45,831 bases of DNA from a bacterium (GTDB taxonomy: Bacteria > Patescibacteriota > Saccharimonadia > Saccharimonadales > SZUA-47), in assembly GCA_009923445.1 (NCBI GenBank), contig RFTN01000006.1, forward strand, positions 1-45,831, in the 5' to 3' direction. The position numbers and the translations under genes are program-made. Under the pieces are notes generated by a model. It was not told where the DNA came from. It ran no database searches and saw only the letters and a list, made by a program, of their open reading frames with translations. Positions 26,043 to 33,291 of the stretch are shown here, in pieces. The first letter of the stretch is position 1, and each line of letters begins with the position of its first letter.

Positions 26043-27824
26043 CTATAGTTCTCTATTCATTATGTCATTCAACAATTTTAACTTGGATTTAATTTCATCG
26101 TCGGTCGTGGAAAGTGTATTAATAGTTTCTGTAACAGCGACTGTGCAATTGTAGGAGAGTAAAAAGTGGCTGCATTTAAGAATATCTTGTGAGCAGCCTT
26201 TTTGAATACTTTTGATGCCTTCTATAAGTTTAGCTGCCTTGCGTGTGGCTGGACTATCTTGAAGTTTATTGAGAGCGAACAAAGCACGATTAATGTATTT
26301 TTCCTTATGTATCTTTTGCATCAAATCTGATACATTTTCAATAAATGAATCAACATAGTCAACTGAAGTTAGCTCTATTCCGTTGTTCTTGCACGTTTGT
26401 TGGTTAACGACAACATCTAGGAACGCGCCACGGGTATAATATGTCTCGGATCCATAGTAATTGACCATACTAATGTATGTATTATATACATTCAGTTTAT
26501 CATGGTCCATGTATCGTTTGAAAAAGGTGGCAAAGTTATCAAGTAATCGTTTGTAATCACTATATTTTCGCAAAAAGTTCATTAAATTGTGTGCTGTGTC
26601 TAAATACGAACTGAACTTGCAGTTTGTCTCGATGTAGTTAAGTAGAAGTAAGCTCAAACTGTCGGAATAGCTTCCCACAAATTTAATGTTTTTTAGTAGT
26701 TTCATCAGTGCAAAGACGTGTTGGATGTGTGCATTTGACGCACGTGTGTACTGTAATGTTATGGAGCCGCAAGTGATGGGATTGGAGTAGATAACATCAT
26801 TTTCTGAGGGCGAAAATACAAACGTTCCTTGAAGTTTGATGAAACTTAGTCCATATAAATTGGTATCAAATAGAGTATCCGAGGTTTCATAAGGTCCAAA
26901 GATTGTTTGTAGATTAGTTTCAAAGCATTTAATCACGTTTGAGATGACTTTGTAGTTGCCGTACAACGTGATATCATAATCCGAATCAAGTTTTGTTGAA
27001 CCGACGCTTACCGCATTTATAGAATTGGTTTCTTGTATATTAAGCCGTGAGAGGGCACTAGTTTGGTTTTTGCTTGGTTGTGATGCAAGTGAGCAGACCG
27101 AGATAGAAATGTCAACACACACTTTGCGGAGGTACCAAAACAGGCACTTGCACACGAGCGAAAGCTCCTTAAACACGGTGACAAACTTGGTCGAGGACAA
27201 GCCATCTTGTGCAATGAATTGTTTGATCAGCTCGGTGTTGTCGGAAAACATTCCTAACAAGGTGATTGCCGATGACCTATGTCGTTCAAGGTATCGCTTG
27301 GCTTCGATGACTGACATACGTGTAATGGTTTCCCATACAAACGGTTTGTCTGTTGACATGACTTTGTATTCGTCGTTTTTGGAGGTCAACAAACCATATT
27401 TAGTAAAGAAGTTAAGTGCAATGTTCATGATGTGGCTAGTAGACACTATCTCGTAAGTGCCTTTTTCAAAAATGTACACACGACGTCTATTGACACCGGT
27501 CACACTGTCATTTTGTAAGTCTTTTTTAAGACGTTTTGTGAAATCGTTGAAATTACGGACAATATCTGATGATCCGCACTGTAATTCATACCAGTCAAAG
27601 TTCGAAACAGTGAATTCTAAAAAGGCTTCAAGATCTTTGACCAATGTGTAATCTACTTTGGACATACTTGAAGTGGACGACTTCGTGTCGTCACTAGTGG
27701 CAATGGACAAGGTTGAAAGTCTCATACCTACTGATGACCTGGGTCCCGCGGCAGACAGAGGAGACAGCAAGTCTGTGTGTATTTGACTTGGCCTTAGTGA
27801 TTCAATAGAACTGGTCTGCTCCAT
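26043..27824 (-). CDS. Hypothetical protein with putative Pol-beta-fold nucleotidyltransferase motif
   Basis: SVGSTKLDSDYDITL (GS...DxD) followed by FDTNLY. First ATG at 27824. Confidence 0.6.
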   Translation of the reverse strand: MEQTSSIESLRPSQIHTDLLSPLSAAGPRSSVGMRLSTLSIATSDDTKSSTSSMSKVDYTLVKDLEAFLEFTVSNFDWYELQCGSSDIVRNFNDFTKRLKKDLQNDSVTGVNRRRVYIFEKGTYEIVSTSHIMNIALNFFTKYGLLTSKNDEYKVMSTDKPFVWETITRMSVIEAKRYLERHRSSAITLLGMFSDNTELIKQFIAQDGLSSTKFVTVFKELSLVCKCLFWYLRKVCVDISISVCSLASQPSKNQTSALSRLNIQETNSINAVSVGSTKLDSDYDITLYGNYKVISNVIKCFETNLQTIFGPYETSDTLFDTNLYGLSFIKLQGTFVFSPSENDVIYSNPITCGSITLQYTRASNAHIQHVFALMKLLKNIKFVGSYSDSLSLLLLNYIETNCKFSSYLDTAHNLMNFLRKYSDYKRLLDNFATFFKRYMDHDKLNVYNTYISMVNYYGSETYYTRGAFLDVVVNQQTCKNNGIELTSVDYVDSFIENVSDLMQKIHKEKYINRALFALNKLQDSPATRKAAKLIEGIKSIQKGCSQDILKCSHFLLSYNCTVAVTETINTLSTTDDEIKSKLKLLNDIMNREL

Positions 27825-28007
27825 AATTACCAGTACCACACAAAAAATGTTTGGTATTTTGTCAGTCAATGTAATTATGATTTATTTATTTGTTAATTTT
27901 TTCTTGAAATGGGGGCAGGCAAAAAAGTAATAAAAAAGTAATAAAACCTCAGACGAGAGTGTCGTGACCCCGCCTAAAAGAAATCGGAAAAAACGGGAAA
28001 CCATCAA

Positions 28008-28227
28008 TGGTCTCAAGGGAATTTGCGCAGAAAATGCAAAAAGAGACCAGAAAAAGGGTAGTTTCACGCCTACCCGCGCTCTTCACGCCTAAAATGGTTT
28101 GAACCCGCCATCCCGCCTAAAATAGGAAAGTCCGTAGGGTAAAAGTGTTGTGTAACGTTTTCAGATCAAGGTCCGAAAAAGGGCGGGAATGGCGGAGTCA
28201 AACCATACAAGGAGCGGATGGCGTGAA
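28008..28227. other. GC-richer non-coding element with inverted repeats
   Basis: tggtctc/gagacca stem (28008-28049); atggtttgaacccgccatcccgcc pairs imperfectly with ggcgggaatggcggagtcaaaccat, flanked by ttcacgcc/ggcgtgaa. Confidence 0.55.
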
Positions 28228-28413
28228 CTCATATCATCCTTACATGATTATGGTTTAAAACATATGTTTTCTAAAATTTCAGGTGAGACCATGAACGAAG
28301 TGAAATGAGACGAGGAAAACCGAAAATCGGGGATTGTACAATTGTCCAAACGATATCTTCGTCACGTATAAGCTTCCCTCTATTAAATGTCTTCAGGAGG
28401 GAAATCAAGAGGT

Positions 28414-29085
28414 GCAAGACCACCCATTTACAGCGTCCCTCCTTTCCCTCCTCAAATGTCAGCTTAGTCGATTTTTTTTCGATTAAGAGAAGAAAAGGAC
28501 ACTCCGCAAACCATCTTAAACCACAATCGAGACCACGATGCAATAGAGAATAGAGTGAAATGGGAGACCATCATTCCCAGCTAAAATATCCTTTTTTGTA
28601 AGCAAGACCACCCATTAAGAGCATCCCTCCTTTCCCATCTCAAACGGATATTTTACTACAAAATTTTGAATAAGAAGTTACAAATGAACGCTCATCAAAC
28701 CATCTTAAACCACAATCTAGACCACGGCGCCATCGAGAATAGAGTGAAATGGGAGACCATCATCCCTCCTTTCCCAGCTCAAACGGATATTTTACTACAA
28801 TTTTTTGAACAAGAAGTTACAAATGAACGCTCATCAAACCATCTTAAACCACAATCCAGACCACGATGCAAGAGAATGATGTGAAATGGGAGACCACCAT
28901 TCCCCCCTAAAATGGCCTATTTTGTAAGCAAGACCACCCATCCCTCCTTTCCCAGCTCAAACGGATATTTTACTACAATGTTTTGTACAAGAAGTTACAA
29001 ATGAACTTTCTTCAAAACATCTTAAACGACAATCCAGACCAATATGCAAGAGAATGATGTGAAATGGGAGACCACCATTCCCGGT
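28414..29085. repeat. Four imperfect ~140-190 bp direct repeats
   Basis: tccctcctttccc at 28436, 28624, 28763, 28941; gtgaaatgggagacca at 28555, 28744, 28881, 29059. Confidence 0.9.
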
Positions 29086-29125
29086 TAATTTTTTAAGCAA
29101 GTCGTTGCAACAAGTACTAGTATGT

Positions 29126-29360
29126 GCAAGACCACCCATTTAAAACAACACTTGTAAGCAAGACCACCTGTTTAAAACAACACTTGAACGCACTTGTAAG
29201 CAAGACCACCCATTGTAAGCAATACCACCTGTTTAAAACAACACTTGAACGCACTTGTAAGCAAGACCACCAATTGCAACAAGTTGCCACATAGCTGCTG
29301 CAACAAGTAAGCAAGTGTGTAGTGTGCAAGACCACCCATTTAAAACAACACTTGGACGCA
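29126..29360. repeat. Cluster of short modular repeats (GCAAGACCACC and TTTAAAACAACACTTG)
   Basis: GCAAGACCACC at 29126, 29158, 29200, 29261, 29326 (variant at 29219); TTTAAAACAACACTTG four times. Confidence 0.9.
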
Positions 29361-29489
29361 CTTGTTGCCACATAGCAAGTACGCAAGTGCGTAATGGTGC
29401 CATTTAAGAACGCACTTGAAAGCAATACACAACAGGCACTAAAAAACTGATTTTTGGACAAATTTGGTCACAAAAACCCTATAAGAGAA

Positions 29490-30431
29490 ATGAGAAAGCA
29501 ATTGATGACTACATGTTTACGATCGCATTACACGAATGAGTTTGTAATTGATATGAAAGATGCGTGTTACTTAATAGGACAATTTAGTAGTGTTCATGAG
29601 TATGTAGAGTCACAATACGTAGAGAATGTAGGATACAAAATAGAAAATGGTAGACTAATGTTAAATGTACAGACATTTATAGAGCTGTGTATTGAGAGTA
29701 ACAATCAAGAATCCAAGAAATTCGTAGGATTATTTGTGCAAAACAAACAAGAAACGTATCAAGAATACGAAAAAACTGGTAACATATACATACTAAGAGT
29801 CGAATCGGGTGGCCCATTAAAGATTGGCCGGTCCAAAAATGTCAGTAAACGTGTAGGAAGTTTACAATGTGGGCATCATGAGAAGATTGAAGTACTATAT
29901 GTTTTTTCAACAAGCAATGATGTCTTGCTCGAGCGTATTATTCATGTTGTCCTTGAGAAATACAGGTGCAATTCAGGTCGCGAGTTCTTCAACTGCAATT
30001 TTACTTTCGCCAAAAATGCTTTGATGTTCATAGGAAATGCATTTGAAACATTAATGTCCAGTTTACAAGATATTACACTCGATGAAATATTCGTCAAATT
30101 CAAATTGAAATTTGAAGAACACAAAATGGACTTGGAAGTAAACAACAGTTTGATGGACGTTACGGGAACTGATGAACAAAGCGATTTCGATAAGTGGCTC
30201 CGAAAAAATATCGTAGTAAATCAGAACGCTGTACTGAACTTGACCGATATTTGTAAAGGATATTTGGGTAAAAAAGCACCTTCAAGAATAGCTTCAAAAT
30301 ACAAAACATAGGTTGAAGAATACATTTCTCTTTATTTTCCAGGAATCAATCCCAAGTACACTGATTCAACTTATTGCAAAGTAAAGTTTAAAGGGTGGGC
30401 TGGCTTATCTATTAAAAGAAATGCTATTTAA
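29490..30431 (+). pseudogene. T5orf172/GIY-YIG-like protein with D5-like C-terminal domain interrupted by in-frame TAG (30309-30311)
   Basis: GNIYIL...LKIGRSKNVSKRVGSLQCG...LERIIH..L..YR...REFF. The frame continues 39 codons past the TAG with homology to the D5 C-terminus. It could be a truncated CDS, a readthrough CDS or a sequencing error. Confidence 0.7.
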
Positions 30432-30436
30432 AAGTA

Positions 30437-30444
30437 AAAATTGA
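30437..30444 (+). promoter_or_regulatory. Mimivirus-type early promoter AAAATTGA
   Basis: Exact octamer just upstream of D5 ATG 30460. Confidence 0.6.
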
Positions 30445-30459
30445 TAAACTTCAGTAAGG

Positions 30460-33291
30460 ATGTATACACGCAAGAGCATTGCCTTGAGGGATAAAGACGA
30501 ATCGCAAATTGTGTGTAATGAAGCGATTACAAAGTACTTCCTATTAGACAGTTACACGGAGTTCAGAAGGCTTATAGAGGACACTGAAAGCCCGTGTTTT
30601 TATGAATTTATTGGCTCTGACTCTCCGGTCAAAATGTTCATGGACATTGAAATATACAAATCTAAGCACTTGGACATGTTTAATGATCACAAAACCCTTA
30701 TTACAAGTATTGTCCAGTCTCTTCGAGTTGGACTTGCCGACATGAGCATTGAAACAAGTGTTGTTGTATTAGAGTCTCACAACGACACCAAACGCAGCTA
30801 TCACGTCATTTGTAATGGAGTGCGTAATGGAAAGATCGTTGCATTCCGGAACGCCAAGGCGCTCAAGACATGGATTACGTCGGTTTTTGGAGACCTTGTG
30901 CAACAAAAGATCGTTGATACAGCTGTTTATCGTGAGGGTCTTTTTAGAACGTACCTCAGCAGCAAACAGCATGAGTTTCGCCCGTTGGTGGCGAGTGATA
31001 TATCCGACTCATTTGATTTCTTAGATACTTTTGTGTGCCATTTCCACCTCACCTCACCGGATACTTATGAAATTGTAGAACTGGAAACTGTTACTCAACC
31101 CATAGAAATAGTCACAGAACATGACCAACAACGTGTATATGCTGAGCTTGATGCTTCAGACAAATCCGTTATTTCTCATTTCCTAAGACTTCATTATGCC
31201 ATCCGCCCAACTGACATTCGGGAGTTTCGAGTTGATACGCAATTGAATTGTATCATTATTAGTTTGCACGAGAAATTTTGTTACAATGTTCAAAGGGAGC
31301 ACCGTAGTAACCACCAATACATAGTTATAGACACGTATAGCTCTAAACAAAAGTGCCATGATACCGACTGTAGCAATTTCAAGTACACAGAGATAAAACT
31401 AGACAAATACCCACCAGACCTTTCTCAAATAGTGTTGAAATGCCTGCGTGTCAATCGAATAGAACAAGAGCTTATCCAAAAGGCCAAAGAGGATTGCAAA
31501 GACTACATAAATGAAAATTTTGACAATATTCAAGACATTACATTTGACAAAAACGAGCTTGTGTTTCGCGGAGATGCGACAACGGAAAGTCTAATGCGTG
31601 TAAATGGGAAATGCCCTCAGTGCAACCTTGAGCACCAAATTACAGGTGGTGGATACTGTATACGGTGCCGTGTGTGTAACAGTGTCTTTCCACGAAACCA
31701 GCTAATTCCAGTGGATGCCCGGTTTAAAGAAATACAGTCCTTCTGGAATAACTACACAAATTTGATCAATCATGGGACGGTCAACTACAATGTCACTGTC
31801 AACTACAACTCGGTGGTAGATGATACAGAGCAATTTGATTGTGATGTCAATTTAGAAGAGGACATTCTTAAAAACACACCTATAACAAAGTTATTTAATC
31901 AAATCCTTGATGGACACAAGATTACCAAGATTGGTGAACTGCTCAAGCGTCTTGAAGTGGATTTTCGGTATGCAAATGGGAATTGGTACTACTTTAACGG
32001 AAGTATATGGAAACATGACAATGAAACACTTGAATTTCGGAAAAAGATCGTAAAAATAACGAATATGACGCACACGATAAAGTCGTACTACGAATCAAGA
32101 CGAGGTGAACACAATGCCAAGTTGGTAAAAAGTGTCAAGGGTCTTGCTAACAAGTTCCATCGGCCCGGTTTTCAAGATGAAATTGTCAAGGGTGCCAAGA
32201 TGTATTTTCATGACGAATCGTTCTTAAAAAATCTGAATCGAAAAAAACACCTGGTACCATTTACAAATGGCGTGTTTGATTTGCTTGAACGCAAATTTCG
32301 AAAAACGCGCAAGGATGACTACGTTCTCCTCACAACAGAGTACGCATATGACGAACGTGCACGTAATCCCGGTGTATACGAATTTCTTGAACAGATCTTG
32401 CCTAATGCAGGTGTAAGAGACTTTGTATTAAAGAAGTTATCAGATTGTTTAAATGGTGATATACCAAACACGTATTTTTTAATGTTTATCGGCGACTCGG
32501 GTGCCAATGGCAAAAGTCAACTGCTTAATCTAGCAAAAGCGTGTTTTGGAGAGCTAGGGGAAAAGGTGGAAGTAACACTACTTACACGTAAGAGGAACAA
32601 TGCAAACGAAGCAAATAGCGAAAAGGTCAAATTGATGCACAAACGATTTGCATTTTTAAGTGAACCTGAAGATGGAGAAAAGATTAATATTGGTCTTCTT
32701 AAGGAACTCACTGGCTCGGAGGAAATCGTGGCCCGTGGACTTTACCAAGAACCGGTATCTTTTGTCATGGAAGCAAAGTTGTTCCTTGCATGTAACGAGC
32801 TTCCTGAAATCAAAGGCGAGGACACTGCTTTGTGGCGCAGAATTCGTGTTGTGGATTTCCCATCACGGTTTGTAGACAATCCTCAAAGGCCGGGTGAGTA
32901 CAAGATTGATAGAGACATCCCGTCAAAAATAAGAGAAAATATCTCATGGAGACAAACATTTATGAATATTCTTATTGACTACTACCACAAAGACGTCCCA
33001 GAACCTGAATCAGTTAGAATCACCACAAACGAATACCGCGAAGTAAACAATGACTTTTACAATTGGTTGTCAGAGAATGTCGTTGAATGTCCAGATTCTG
33101 CACTAAGACTCAAGGACGTTTGTGAAACGTACTTGATGAAAACCAAGATAGTGTCAAGAGAATCCACAAAATACAAAAAGGAGATTCAAAGATACATTAA
33201 AGAAAAGTACCCGCATCTAAAATGGGAATACCAAGATACCAGCATTAATGGAGATAAATTTAAAGGATGGGCTAAACTAAAACTCCGTTGA
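30460..33291 (+). CDS. D5: D5-like primase-helicase (AEP/PrimPol primase, Zn domains, SF3 helicase)
   Basis: FMDIE, SYHVI, DTAVY...FRT..SSK (primase); FTNGVFDL; Walker A GANGKS; SEPE, LKELTG, ACNELP, WRRIRVVDFPSRF. Confidence 0.95.
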   Translation: MYTRKSIALRDKDESQIVCNEAITKYFLLDSYTEFRRLIEDTESPCFYEFIGSDSPVKMFMDIEIYKSKHLDMFNDHKTLITSIVQSLRVGLADMSIETSVVVLESHNDTKRSYHVICNGVRNGKIVAFRNAKALKTWITSVFGDLVQQKIVDTAVYREGLFRTYLSSKQHEFRPLVASDISDSFDFLDTFVCHFHLTSPDTYEIVELETVTQPIEIVTEHDQQRVYAELDASDKSVISHFLRLHYAIRPTDIREFRVDTQLNCIIISLHEKFCYNVQREHRSNHQYIVIDTYSSKQKCHDTDCSNFKYTEIKLDKYPPDLSQIVLKCLRVNRIEQELIQKAKEDCKDYINENFDNIQDITFDKNELVFRGDATTESLMRVNGKCPQCNLEHQITGGGYCIRCRVCNSVFPRNQLIPVDARFKEIQSFWNNYTNLINHGTVNYNVTVNYNSVVDDTEQFDCDVNLEEDILKNTPITKLFNQILDGHKITKIGELLKRLEVDFRYANGNWYYFNGSIWKHDNETLEFRKKIVKITNMTHTIKSYYESRRGEHNAKLVKSVKGLANKFHRPGFQDEIVKGAKMYFHDESFLKNLNRKKHLVPFTNGVFDLLERKFRKTRKDDYVLLTTEYAYDERARNPGVYEFLEQILPNAGVRDFVLKKLSDCLNGDIPNTYFLMFIGDSGANGKSQLLNLAKACFGELGEKVEVTLLTRKRNNANEANSEKVKLMHKRFAFLSEPEDGEKINIGLLKELTGSEEIVARGLYQEPVSFVMEAKLFLACNELPEIKGEDTALWRRIRVVDFPSRFVDNPQRPGEYKIDRDIPSKIRENISWRQTFMNILIDYYHKDVPEPESVRITTNEYREVNNDFYNWLSENVVECPDSALRLKDVCETYLMKTKIVSRESTKYKKEIQRYIKEKYPHLKWEYQDTSINGDKFKGWAKLKLR

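Follow-up and report, generated by a model that had tools for sequence, protein, structure and literature searches.

A 1665-bp non-coding tract of direct and inverted repeats lies in a 45,831-nucleotide stretch of mimivirus-like DNA (hereafter the window, which is the entire contig C123, 45.8 kb), immediately upstream of a T5orf172/MUG113 gene and, behind it, the gene for a D5-type primase-helicase (D5). Related viruses have repeat-rich gaps linked to their own D5 genes, and a short box is common to these gaps and the window. From such sequence comparisons we tentatively read the tract (~27997–29450), with a confidence somewhat short of even, as a rearranged copy of a clade-wide, D5-linked cis-acting module whose most likely role is that of a replication origin or helicase-loading site. 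The module would consist of an inverted repeat and then arrays of short putative protein-binding boxes, its sequence being lineage-specific save for (G)AGACCA(T/C). The window would show a permutation of the three parts (module, then T5orf172, then D5) and an amplification of the box into direct repeats on one strand. The boxes would be docking sites for winged-helix domains, those of the D5 hexamer, of the T5orf172 protein or of both, through which the primase-helicase is loaded, so that a replication origin would stand beside the gene for its initiator, an arrangement that phage P4 and iteron plasmids also have.

The window was binned with a Saccharibacteria metagenome-assembled genome (MAG) of 1.8 Mb, the 177 contigs of which range in G+C content from 28 to 69%. 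Pfam identifies genes for a paralogue of the nucleocytoplasmic large DNA virus (NCLDV) major capsid protein, MutS, a kinesin-like protein, a glycosyltransferase and D5, and the Mimiviridae early-promoter word AAAATTGA (an early motif: PMC5294985; preprint 10.1101/2022.07.28.501842) lies at 30437–30444, 23 nt ahead of the D5 start codon. Given the capsid, MutS and D5 genes and the AAAATTGA promoters, the window is a mimivirus-like giant-virus contig that is mis-binned or a contaminant in the MAG; we infer the order-level placement of the virus. Tetranucleotide use in 11 more contigs (314 kb) correlates with that of the window at r ≥ 0.9, and ~360 kb of the bin is virus-like by tetranucleotide use. 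The bin also holds a second full-length D5 gene (C3:31989–34835), whose product shares 54% identity with the window D5 and 89% with a protein from another source. Since two full-length D5 genes of 54% identity are present, the bin probably holds more than one related giant virus, with two suggested, and we doubt that the 12 contigs of similar tetranucleotide use represent one virus. The viral genome is incomplete, and absence elsewhere in the genome means absence elsewhere in the bin throughout this text.

Repeat gaps and a common box beside D5 in related viruses

Using an alignment query, we collected 59 D5 loci from IMG/VR and merged them at ≥90% nucleotide identity into 43 lineages, for 39 of which the available 3′ flank extends to 1 kb or more. 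A gap was defined as at least 400 bp without an open reading frame (ORF) of at least 70 aa. The first relatives (D5 50–58% identical) have no tract upstream of D5 and have repeat-rich non-coding DNA downstream of it. In 18 lineages, no more than 36 nt separate the D5 stop codon from the start of a gap, and in five others the distance is at most 1 kb; only three such gaps are found on the 5′ side. Gaps follow 18/41 D5 ORFs versus 7/134 other ORFs of at least 300 aa in the same loci (odds ratio 14, Fisher 2e-8, a p-value that overstates independence because the lineages are kin), which argues that the D5 link is no local accident; the contrast is conservative, since some control gaps belong to genes across the same gaps. 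At the 5′ end, the corresponding counts are 2/37 for D5 and 20/131 for other ORFs. The preliminary description of this DNA, which proposed an iteron locus associated with D5 and looked to synteny in relatives, is supported in part, by the linkage, the common box and the RFX/P4/ASFV-like fold described below. The gaps of these 18 lineages are 3′ of D5, unlike that of the window, where the tract lies on the side opposite to the usual one.

The relatives' gaps have a recurrent architecture. Near the D5 stop codon is a long inverted repeat whose arms are runs of a lineage-specific 9–12-bp unit, with an A+T-rich centre between them. The arms hold GTTACCT six times each in lineage L177, GGTTACCCC in L190 (83-nt arms, 98.8%) and TGTTCTACG in L009. 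Direct arrays often follow, with periods of either 21–32 nt (8–16 copies) or 100–210 nt (2–3 copies). Palindromic regions spanning at least 140 bp number 13 in 60 kb of D5 3′ zones versus eight in the other 524 kb, and four of these eight lie within gaps a few kilobases further downstream of D5; the scan undercounts, missing for instance the palindrome of L190. The D5 palindromes span 140–590 bp, as compared with 28–64 bp for the ordinary ones that are common throughout the loci. Neither Rfam at the gathering score (loci of seven relatives) nor a tRNA search (loci of 18) returned anything that explains the gaps.

T5orf172 genes that encode the winged-helix domain described below (T5orf172-WH) occur at most 5 kb downstream of D5 in 12/43 lineages and never upstream, and six more lineages have an additional winged-helix-only ORF in the same 5-kb stretch. 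The gap adjoins either end of the T5orf172-WH gene: the order is D5, tract, T5orf172 in L199, and D5, a 158-aa ORF, T5orf172, inverted repeat and 21-nt array in the L147 group. The window order is inverted repeat, array, T5orf172, D5, with the inverted repeat preceding the array on the D5 strand, the non-coding tract directly upstream of T5orf172 and D5 thereafter. The window thus has the three parts found in the relatives, with its non-coding tract and T5orf172 both located on the opposite side of D5.

Several lineages that lack a gap right after D5 (L198, L201, L203, L206, L207, L208 and L212) have a non-coding gap of ~0.4–2 kb that lies 2.2–5.4 kb downstream of D5. Several of these gaps are immediately upstream of a T5orf172-WH gene, and the gaps may be displaced copies of the D5-linked module. 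A separate observation concerns the relatives of 58% identity, in which D5 is immediately preceded by a gene (L147:4786–5856; also L010–L013, L146 and L148) for a very basic, K/S/R-rich protein composed of 19- and 10-residue repeats. Near-identical contigs differ in the copy number of these repeats (protein length 346–365 aa).

A box common to these lineages emerged from an unbiased count of 7-mers in 24 relatives' gaps, which excluded the window and took its expectation from size-matched segments of the same loci. The top words were GACCATA (12 lineages, 0.8 expected), AGACCAT (13, 1.9 expected), GAGACCA (9, 0.3 expected) and ACCATAA (15, 3.8 expected). Gaps contain AGACCAT at a density of 1.39 per kb, as against 0.06 per kb for the remaining non-coding DNA and 0.12 per kb for coding DNA. 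The 9-mer AGACCATAA occurs 15 times in gaps and three times in coding DNA, and the other non-coding DNA of the D5 loci (34 kb) contains two copies of AGACCAT and none of AGACCATAA; we write the common box as (G)AGACCATAA. In L177 and L190, it sits at the centre of every arm. The window tract contains AGACCAT in both orientations, at 28286, 28565 and 28754 on the + strand and at 28007 on the − strand, as compared with seven copies in the remaining 44 kb. Two of the tract copies, at 28007 and 28286, lie on either side of its inner inverted repeat. The related word AGACCAC forms the core of the 11-mer GCAAGACCACC described below.

Anatomy of the repeat tract in the window

The tract (27825–29489) is the only gap of at least 600 bp on the contig without an ORF of at least 90 aa, in keeping with the lone long non-coding tract reported earlier, and it separates divergently transcribed genes, with a 593-aa gene to the left and T5orf172/MUG113 and then D5 to the right (Table 1). 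As had been described, the 11-mer GCAAGACCACC occurs in eight exact copies, all on the + strand (28414, 28602, 28928, 29126, 29158, 29200, 29261 and 29326), and position 29219 has a further, ninth copy that departs from it by one mismatch. When up to one mismatch is allowed, the window has 10 matches where 0.71 would be expected, a number that 0/100 shuffles reach. The bias in orientation extends to the shorter word AGACCA, present 18 times on the + strand and once on the − strand of the tract versus 8 and 14 times in the rest of the window, and the array strand has a base make-up of 36% A and 25% C.

The four long imperfect repeats grading into short shuffled modules were both recovered. Each long unit has two or three additional AGACCA cores, and the units agree at a mean column identity of 76%, with the invariant blocks CCCTCCTTTCCC, CATCTTAAAC and GTGAAATGGGAGACCA. 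We detected no conserved RNA structure in the long units (−7.4 kcal/mol) and no inverted repeat inside the direct, one-strand units. The boxes of the short modules, at 29126, 29158, 29200, 29219 (one mismatch), 29261 and 29326, are spaced 32, 42, 19, 42 and 65 nt apart. While the box is exact in 8/9 copies, the flanks of the short modules have diverged to a mean column identity of 54%. The short modules include ATTTAAAA, a promoter-type motif of this virus group, and the diverged copy nearest the gene is followed by AAAACTGA, a one-mismatch variant of AAAATTGA located 47 nt ahead of the ATG at 29490, where it resembles a core promoter.

To the left of the array is a palindromic part, which the preliminary description, in delimiting the element as 28414–29450, had left out. 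Its outer arms (28007–28024 and 28275–28292) hold AGACCAT in opposite orientations, and nested between them is an imperfect inverted repeat (28077–28114 and 28186–28223) with 38-nt arms of 71% complementarity spaced 71 nt apart. These nested 38-nt and 18-nt arms have no visible iteron make-up. The region 28055–28240 folds strongly (z −5.3 on the + strand and −5.5 on the − strand), with 0/200 shuffles equally stable. The A+T-rich stretch of the tract is ~500 bp away from the first 11-mer box.

Table 1. Features of the tract and of the genes that flank it, in window coordinates
Feature	Position	Strand	Description
593-aa flanking gene	26043–27824	−	Transcribed away from the tract
A+T-rich stretch	27850–27915		Sole part of the tract with ≥80% A+T (40-nt window scan); before the leftward gene
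Palindromic part	27997–28292		Nested inverted repeats from repeat search
Long direct units U1–U4	28414–29125	+	188, 159, 167 and 198 bp; 3/4 begin with the 11-mer box
Limits of U1–U4	28414–28601, 28602–28760, 28761–28927, 28928–29125	+	From repeat search
Short shuffled modules	29126–29362	+	Consensus TTGTAAGCAAGACCACCCATTTAAAACAACACTTG; periods of 32 and 61 nt
Diverged gene-proximal short-module copy	29398–29450	+	CCATTTAAGAACGCACTTGAAAGCAATACACAAC (copy at 29398–29431), then AAAACTGA at 29443–29450
T5orf172/MUG113 (GIY-YIG-like) gene	29490–30425	+	Pfam MUG113 6.8e-14, T5orf172 6.3e-9; ORF 29490–30311
D5-type primase-helicase	30460–33291	+	UL52-like primase motif, D5_N, DUF5906/SF3 helicase (Pfam)

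All pieces of the tract are present with zero differences in two public DNA runs from two studies, and the tract sequence is real. The contigs of these runs break within the repeats, so the order and copy number of the units depend on the original assembly. In the assembly graph, the junction piece of long units 3 and 4 (28898–28979) has a depth ~3x (X1) and 2.3x (X2) that of its flanks, suggesting that long units may be collapsed in the contig and that the true array may be longer than shown. Tandem repeats, both coding and non-coding, are frequent in the virus-like contigs.

The tract forms a single locus in the bin. Neither the 11-mer GCAAGACCACC nor any further copy of the tract by blastn was found elsewhere in the 1.8 Mb. 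The nhmmer profile of the long unit recovers its four copies in the tract (E 1e-50 to 2e-54) and, in the rest of the bin, nothing beyond E 0.31; the box profile recovers nine copies in the tract, with a best match elsewhere in the bin of E 0.89. Dispersal like that of a miniature inverted-repeat transposable element (MITE), which the preliminary description had named as an outcome that would overturn its proposal, is therefore rejected. Nor is the tract a relic of a known protein family: in a Pfam search that admitted E values up to 1, seven of its short ORFs and the two domain pieces gave no match. No Rfam match was found in 27500–29800 at E up to 1, a tRNA scan of the tract found none, and scans of the tract for bacterial-type promoters and terminators did not rise above shuffles. 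A search of 20 relatives of the bin's bacterial genome returned no tract copies, a result that is uninformative because the contig is viral.

Searches beyond the bin gave a similar picture. The long-unit pattern has 0 matches in IMG/VR, and a 15-mer search gave at least 130 matches, mostly single and at chance level. With the window D5 as query against IMG/VR and metagenome contigs, the best identity was 58%, and neither P0153 as query nor a search of genome contigs found a closer relative of the tract; D5 proteins 81% (P0152) and 69% (P0153, from a 35.5-kb contig) identical to that of the window do exist, and the identical D5 is present on a 61.9-kb contig. Among RNA runs, none was listed as containing the tract. 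The word AAGACCACC is missing from the D5 loci of 13/13 first relatives.

The winged-helix domain and the rival explanations

The T5orf172 protein has a counterpart (44% identity over 43 aa, E 9e-7) of the C-terminal ~80 residues of D5 (residues ~863–942; 33046–33285), which confirms the earlier suggestion that the two genes downstream of the tract share a C-terminal domain. We found 171 relatives of the domain at E ≤ 1e-3 among 1.84 billion representative proteins. Those longer than ~200 residues from the top 150, 46 in number, were scanned and comprise 12 D5-type helicases, 21 T5orf172/MUG113 proteins, often with Bro-N or MSV199, and 13 proteins of other families or none. An AlphaFold model of the domain built from 40 aligned sequences (predicted local distance difference test, pLDDT, 88.5) has a winged-helix fold that most closely resembles those of the RFX DNA-binding domain (Z 6.2) and the P4 origin-binding domain 1ka8 (Z 5.1, root-mean-square deviation 3.1, 69 aligned residues). 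The PrimPol tail from African swine fever virus (ASFV) also matches, with Z 5.1 over 118 residues; all of these Z values are modest. The tail of D5 is thus predicted to be a winged helix and is putatively DNA-binding, and the tail domain of ASFV C962R has itself been likened to the P4 origin-binding domain and Rfx1 (PMC10516667). One protein of the representative library, P0001 (737 aa), is a T5orf172/MUG113 protein with six tandem winged-helix domains of the D5 type and would be naturally suited to reading DNA boxes in tandem.

In phage P4, the iterons of ori and crr are bound by the C-terminal winged-helix origin-binding domain of the gp-alpha primase-helicase. The present system resembles it in pairing a primase/SF3-type helicase that ends in a winged helix, as modeled, with repeated short boxes near the initiator gene, and D5 relatives are named "P4 family phage/plasmid primase-like" at source. 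It differs in that the host of the module is a eukaryotic giant virus, the boxes vary by lineage and the relatives have large palindromes; the domains are ~14% identical in sequence, and box binding in the window is putative. The tract has features expected of an iteron origin: its non-coding sequence contains a short box many times over, and the repeats are linked to a putative initiator gene, a linkage kept in relatives, the window tract being 1 kb upstream of D5 and behind one gene. The relatives, unlike the surroundings of the window boxes, have A+T-rich centres between the arms.

Baculovirus homologous regions (hrs) are regarded as enhancers and/or origins to which a viral factor binds. 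Like the tract, these regions, and similar arrays in nudiviruses, ascoviruses and white spot syndrome virus (WSSV), are non-coding repeat arrays that belong to large DNA viruses and include palindromic cores. However, a genome has several dispersed hrs, and their units are palindromic, whereas the window unit has no second copy in the bin, its module is tied to D5, and its array is direct with a separate inverted repeat to the left. In polinton-like viruses associated with entomopoxviruses, inverted repeats beside a primase-helicase have been proposed as an origin recognized by that enzyme, and cis-acting sites have been proposed to select for clustering with their proteins (PMC11296320). Those repeats are terminal, occur in small elements and also serve integration, whereas the module described here is internal and iteron-built. 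Where replication starts has also been asked of other nucleocytoviricots: deep sequencing has placed the vaccinia origins close to the ends of the genome, and the question is described as open for other topologies, Marseilleviridae included (PMC7695187). Bodo saltans virus (BsV) is reported to have no skew peak of the bacterial type (PMC5871332). The sites named for vaccinia and Marseilleviridae are terminal concatemer-junction regions near the hairpin termini of vaccinia or, for Marseilleviridae, statistical skew breakpoints, as opposed to a defined internal element linked to D5. The tail domain of ASFV C962R and mpox E5 shares with the D5 tail its position at the end of a primase-helicase and its winged-helix fold (Z 5.1, 118 residues), but it is implicated in unwinding and ATP-site geometry, and the portions of that source considered here describe no linked iteron tract (PMC10516667).

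Rapid turnover of iterons around a conserved central box, together with linkage to one gene, is what would be expected where binding sites and a sequence-specific protein evolve together, and where a site is retained beside the gene of the protein acting on it; for this reason we rank an origin or helicase-loading site first. A more specific version, in which the module is the internal origin of a large mimivirus-like clade whose box is read by the D5 tail, with T5orf172-WH as helper or competitor, is somewhat less probable.

Several observations weigh against the reading as an origin or helicase-loading site, in addition to the kinship of the lineages mentioned above. In some 40% of the lineages, the second D5 of the bin (C3) among them, D5 is not directly followed by a gap, and no repeat module is found 3′ of the C3 gene. 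The window tract itself is 5′ of the T5orf172–D5 pair, ~1 kb upstream of D5, and the gap on the 3′ side of the window D5 amounts to 392 bp, with an 89-aa ORF and a 24-nt repeat and no inverted repeat. With its 38-nt arms of 71% complementarity, the inverted repeat in the window is weak and goes undetected in the strict scan by which the relatives' palindromes were picked up, and the boxes have no adjoining A+T-rich unwinding stretch in the 40-nt window scan of the tract. The majority of the window boxes read AGACCAC rather than AGACCAT, the full 9-mer AGACCATAA is missing from the window, and GACCAT is lacking in 9/24 of the relatives' gaps. On the protein side, the winged-helix domain is a widespread, promiscuous module of Bro-N/MSV199/T5orf172 proteins, the T5orf172 copy in the window is interrupted by a stop codon, and direct DNA binding by the tail domain of ASFV C962R is called unclear (PMC10516667). 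A GC-skew signal, which the preliminary description had proposed as a check, did not materialize: there is no turn at the tract on the 46-kb contig, a piece too short for a reliable signal. Finally, ATTTAAAA in the short modules and an array pointing at the downstream gene fit a transcriptional reading equally well.

That transcriptional reading, in which the inverted repeats would be oversized palindromic terminators and the direct arrays amplified promoter or upstream elements of the neighbouring gene (here T5orf172), we regard as unlikely but as the main rival. Mimiviridae transcripts end at hairpin-forming palindromes (PMC4402537), the relatives' inverted repeat comes right after the D5 stop codon, and palindromes of 28–64 nt are common throughout their loci. 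Nevertheless, the hairpin rule covers all genes, yet both the gaps (18/41 versus 7/134) and the large palindromes (13 in 60 kb versus 8 in 524 kb) concentrate at D5. In the window, the tract stands at the 5′ ends of both flanking genes and hence cannot be the hairpin-rule terminator of either. Its array, on the other hand, is co-oriented with the downstream gene and ends 40–90 nt before the ATG, and the gene-proximal module is a diverged copy, as would be expected of a duplicated promoter segment. ATTTAAAA in the short modules belongs to the same argument, as does the motif ATTTAAA[AG], which precedes 58/318 genes with a peak 20–50 nt before the ATG, and so does TTGAACGCACTT, which is common to the array and to elements 34–86 nt upstream of other genes, co-oriented at 9/11 loci. 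Set against these points, the gene to be driven has an in-frame stop, the profile of the promoter-like TTGAACGCAC modules described below does not recognize the tract (E 5.6), and the AGACCAT(AA) box is nearly confined to D5 gaps, with two AGACCAT and no AGACCATAA in 34 kb of other non-coding DNA. Transcriptional and origin roles need not exclude each other.

The other explanations have less to recommend them. A selfish T5orf172 homing endonuclease of GIY-YIG-like type, for which the D5 side is a landing site and the repeats are scars of cutting and repair or recognition sites, would account for T5orf172-WH genes beside D5 and the gap in 12/43 lineages in both orientations, for their variable position relative to D5 and for the decaying window copy with its in-frame stop; helicases of entomopoxviruses and their polinton-like viruses likewise appear tied to homing endonucleases (PMC11296320). 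We consider it quite unlikely, given that the available DNA of lineages with a gap after D5, such as L177, L181, L183, L190 and L192, and likewise of L219, L220, L222, L230 and L232, has no T5orf172 match, and that ordered iteron palindromes with a conserved central box resemble selected binding sites, not scars. Still less probable is functionless, neutral expansion by slippage or unequal crossing-over under relaxed selection. Tandem repeats are frequent in these contigs, the adjoining T5orf172 gene is broken, the unit sequences have no counterpart in relatives and the depth hints at variable or collapsed copy number; against this, the box has stayed exact in 8/9 copies while its flanks fell to 54% identity, invariant blocks are kept within long units that are 76% identical, and position, architecture and box recur in many lineages. 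We attach a similarly low probability to another kind of cis-acting DNA site, for instance one that serves concatemer resolution or the packaging of the genome, and to a tract that gives rise to non-coding RNA. Such a site could well have inverted repeats and one-strand arrays, and the strong folding at 28055–28240 fits too, but no packaging gene is linked to the tract. As for an RNA, Rfam matches are lacking both in the window tract (E up to 1) and in the loci of seven relatives (gathering score), the long units have no conserved structure, and the two strands of the palindromic part fold equally strongly, as a DNA-level palindrome would.

Flanking genes, promoter-type motifs and significance

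The T5orf172 frame is broken by an in-frame TAG (30309–30311) that interrupts the C-terminal winged-helix domain and beyond which the frame resumes to ~30425, as judged by tblastn and translation; the same TAG is present in the contigs of both public runs. On the other side of the tract, the 593-aa protein matches no Pfam family and no Protein Data Bank (PDB) sequence. Its language-model look-alikes are clusters of PAP/OAS1-type nucleotidyltransferases (score 0.91), a lead suggesting that the gene may encode a viral poly(A) polymerase.

Upstream regions in the 12 virus-like contigs contain what look like two positional promoter-type motifs. ATTTAAA[AG] occurs in 58/318 of these regions with a peak 20–50 nt before the ATG, an example being 30426–30433 of the window, and AAAA[AT]TGA occurs in 30/318 with a peak 30–40 nt before the ATG. 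We also observed a family of non-coding modules in which TTGAACGCAC boxes, two or three in number and at a spacing of exactly 21 bp, come after TTTCCTATAGA (C94:13499–13765, C100:9099–9605, C102:6067–6142, C112:24815–25215, C156:11554–11637 and C156:33804–34234). They often lie within tandem units of 120–213 bp, mostly 34–86 nt upstream of a co-oriented gene, and paired boxes are found at six virus-like loci versus one match in 1.45 Mb of other contigs. The family, which is probably a promoter or regulator site, has a counterpart in 21-nt arrays of the TTGAACGCAC box in another giant-virus MAG (L166/L167; GVMAG-S-3300013132-246). Having considered the family on contigs C94, C100, C102, C112 and C156, we dropped the idea that the window tract belongs to it: the family profile gives only E 5.6, and the two have just a 12-mer in common. 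Separately, the 15-mer GTAAGCAAGACCACC occurs twice, ~1320 nt apart, in unrelated small viral contigs of IMG/VR (L025/L026, L038/L039, L043/L044 and L086/L087), where the pairs probably mark a repeated gene of another virus group.

In keyword searches of open-access full text and bioRxiv, we found no description of a D5-linked repeat module, and an open-access full-text search found no paper in which GAACGCAC appears together with Mimiviridae. Should the tract prove to be transcriptional or selfish instead, it would still represent an unrecorded conserved feature of these genomes. If the module is an origin, it would be the first sequence-defined giant-virus origin outside the poxvirus termini. 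With its conserved position by the primase-helicase gene, its common box and its lineage-specific iterons, the module offers a directly testable candidate element.

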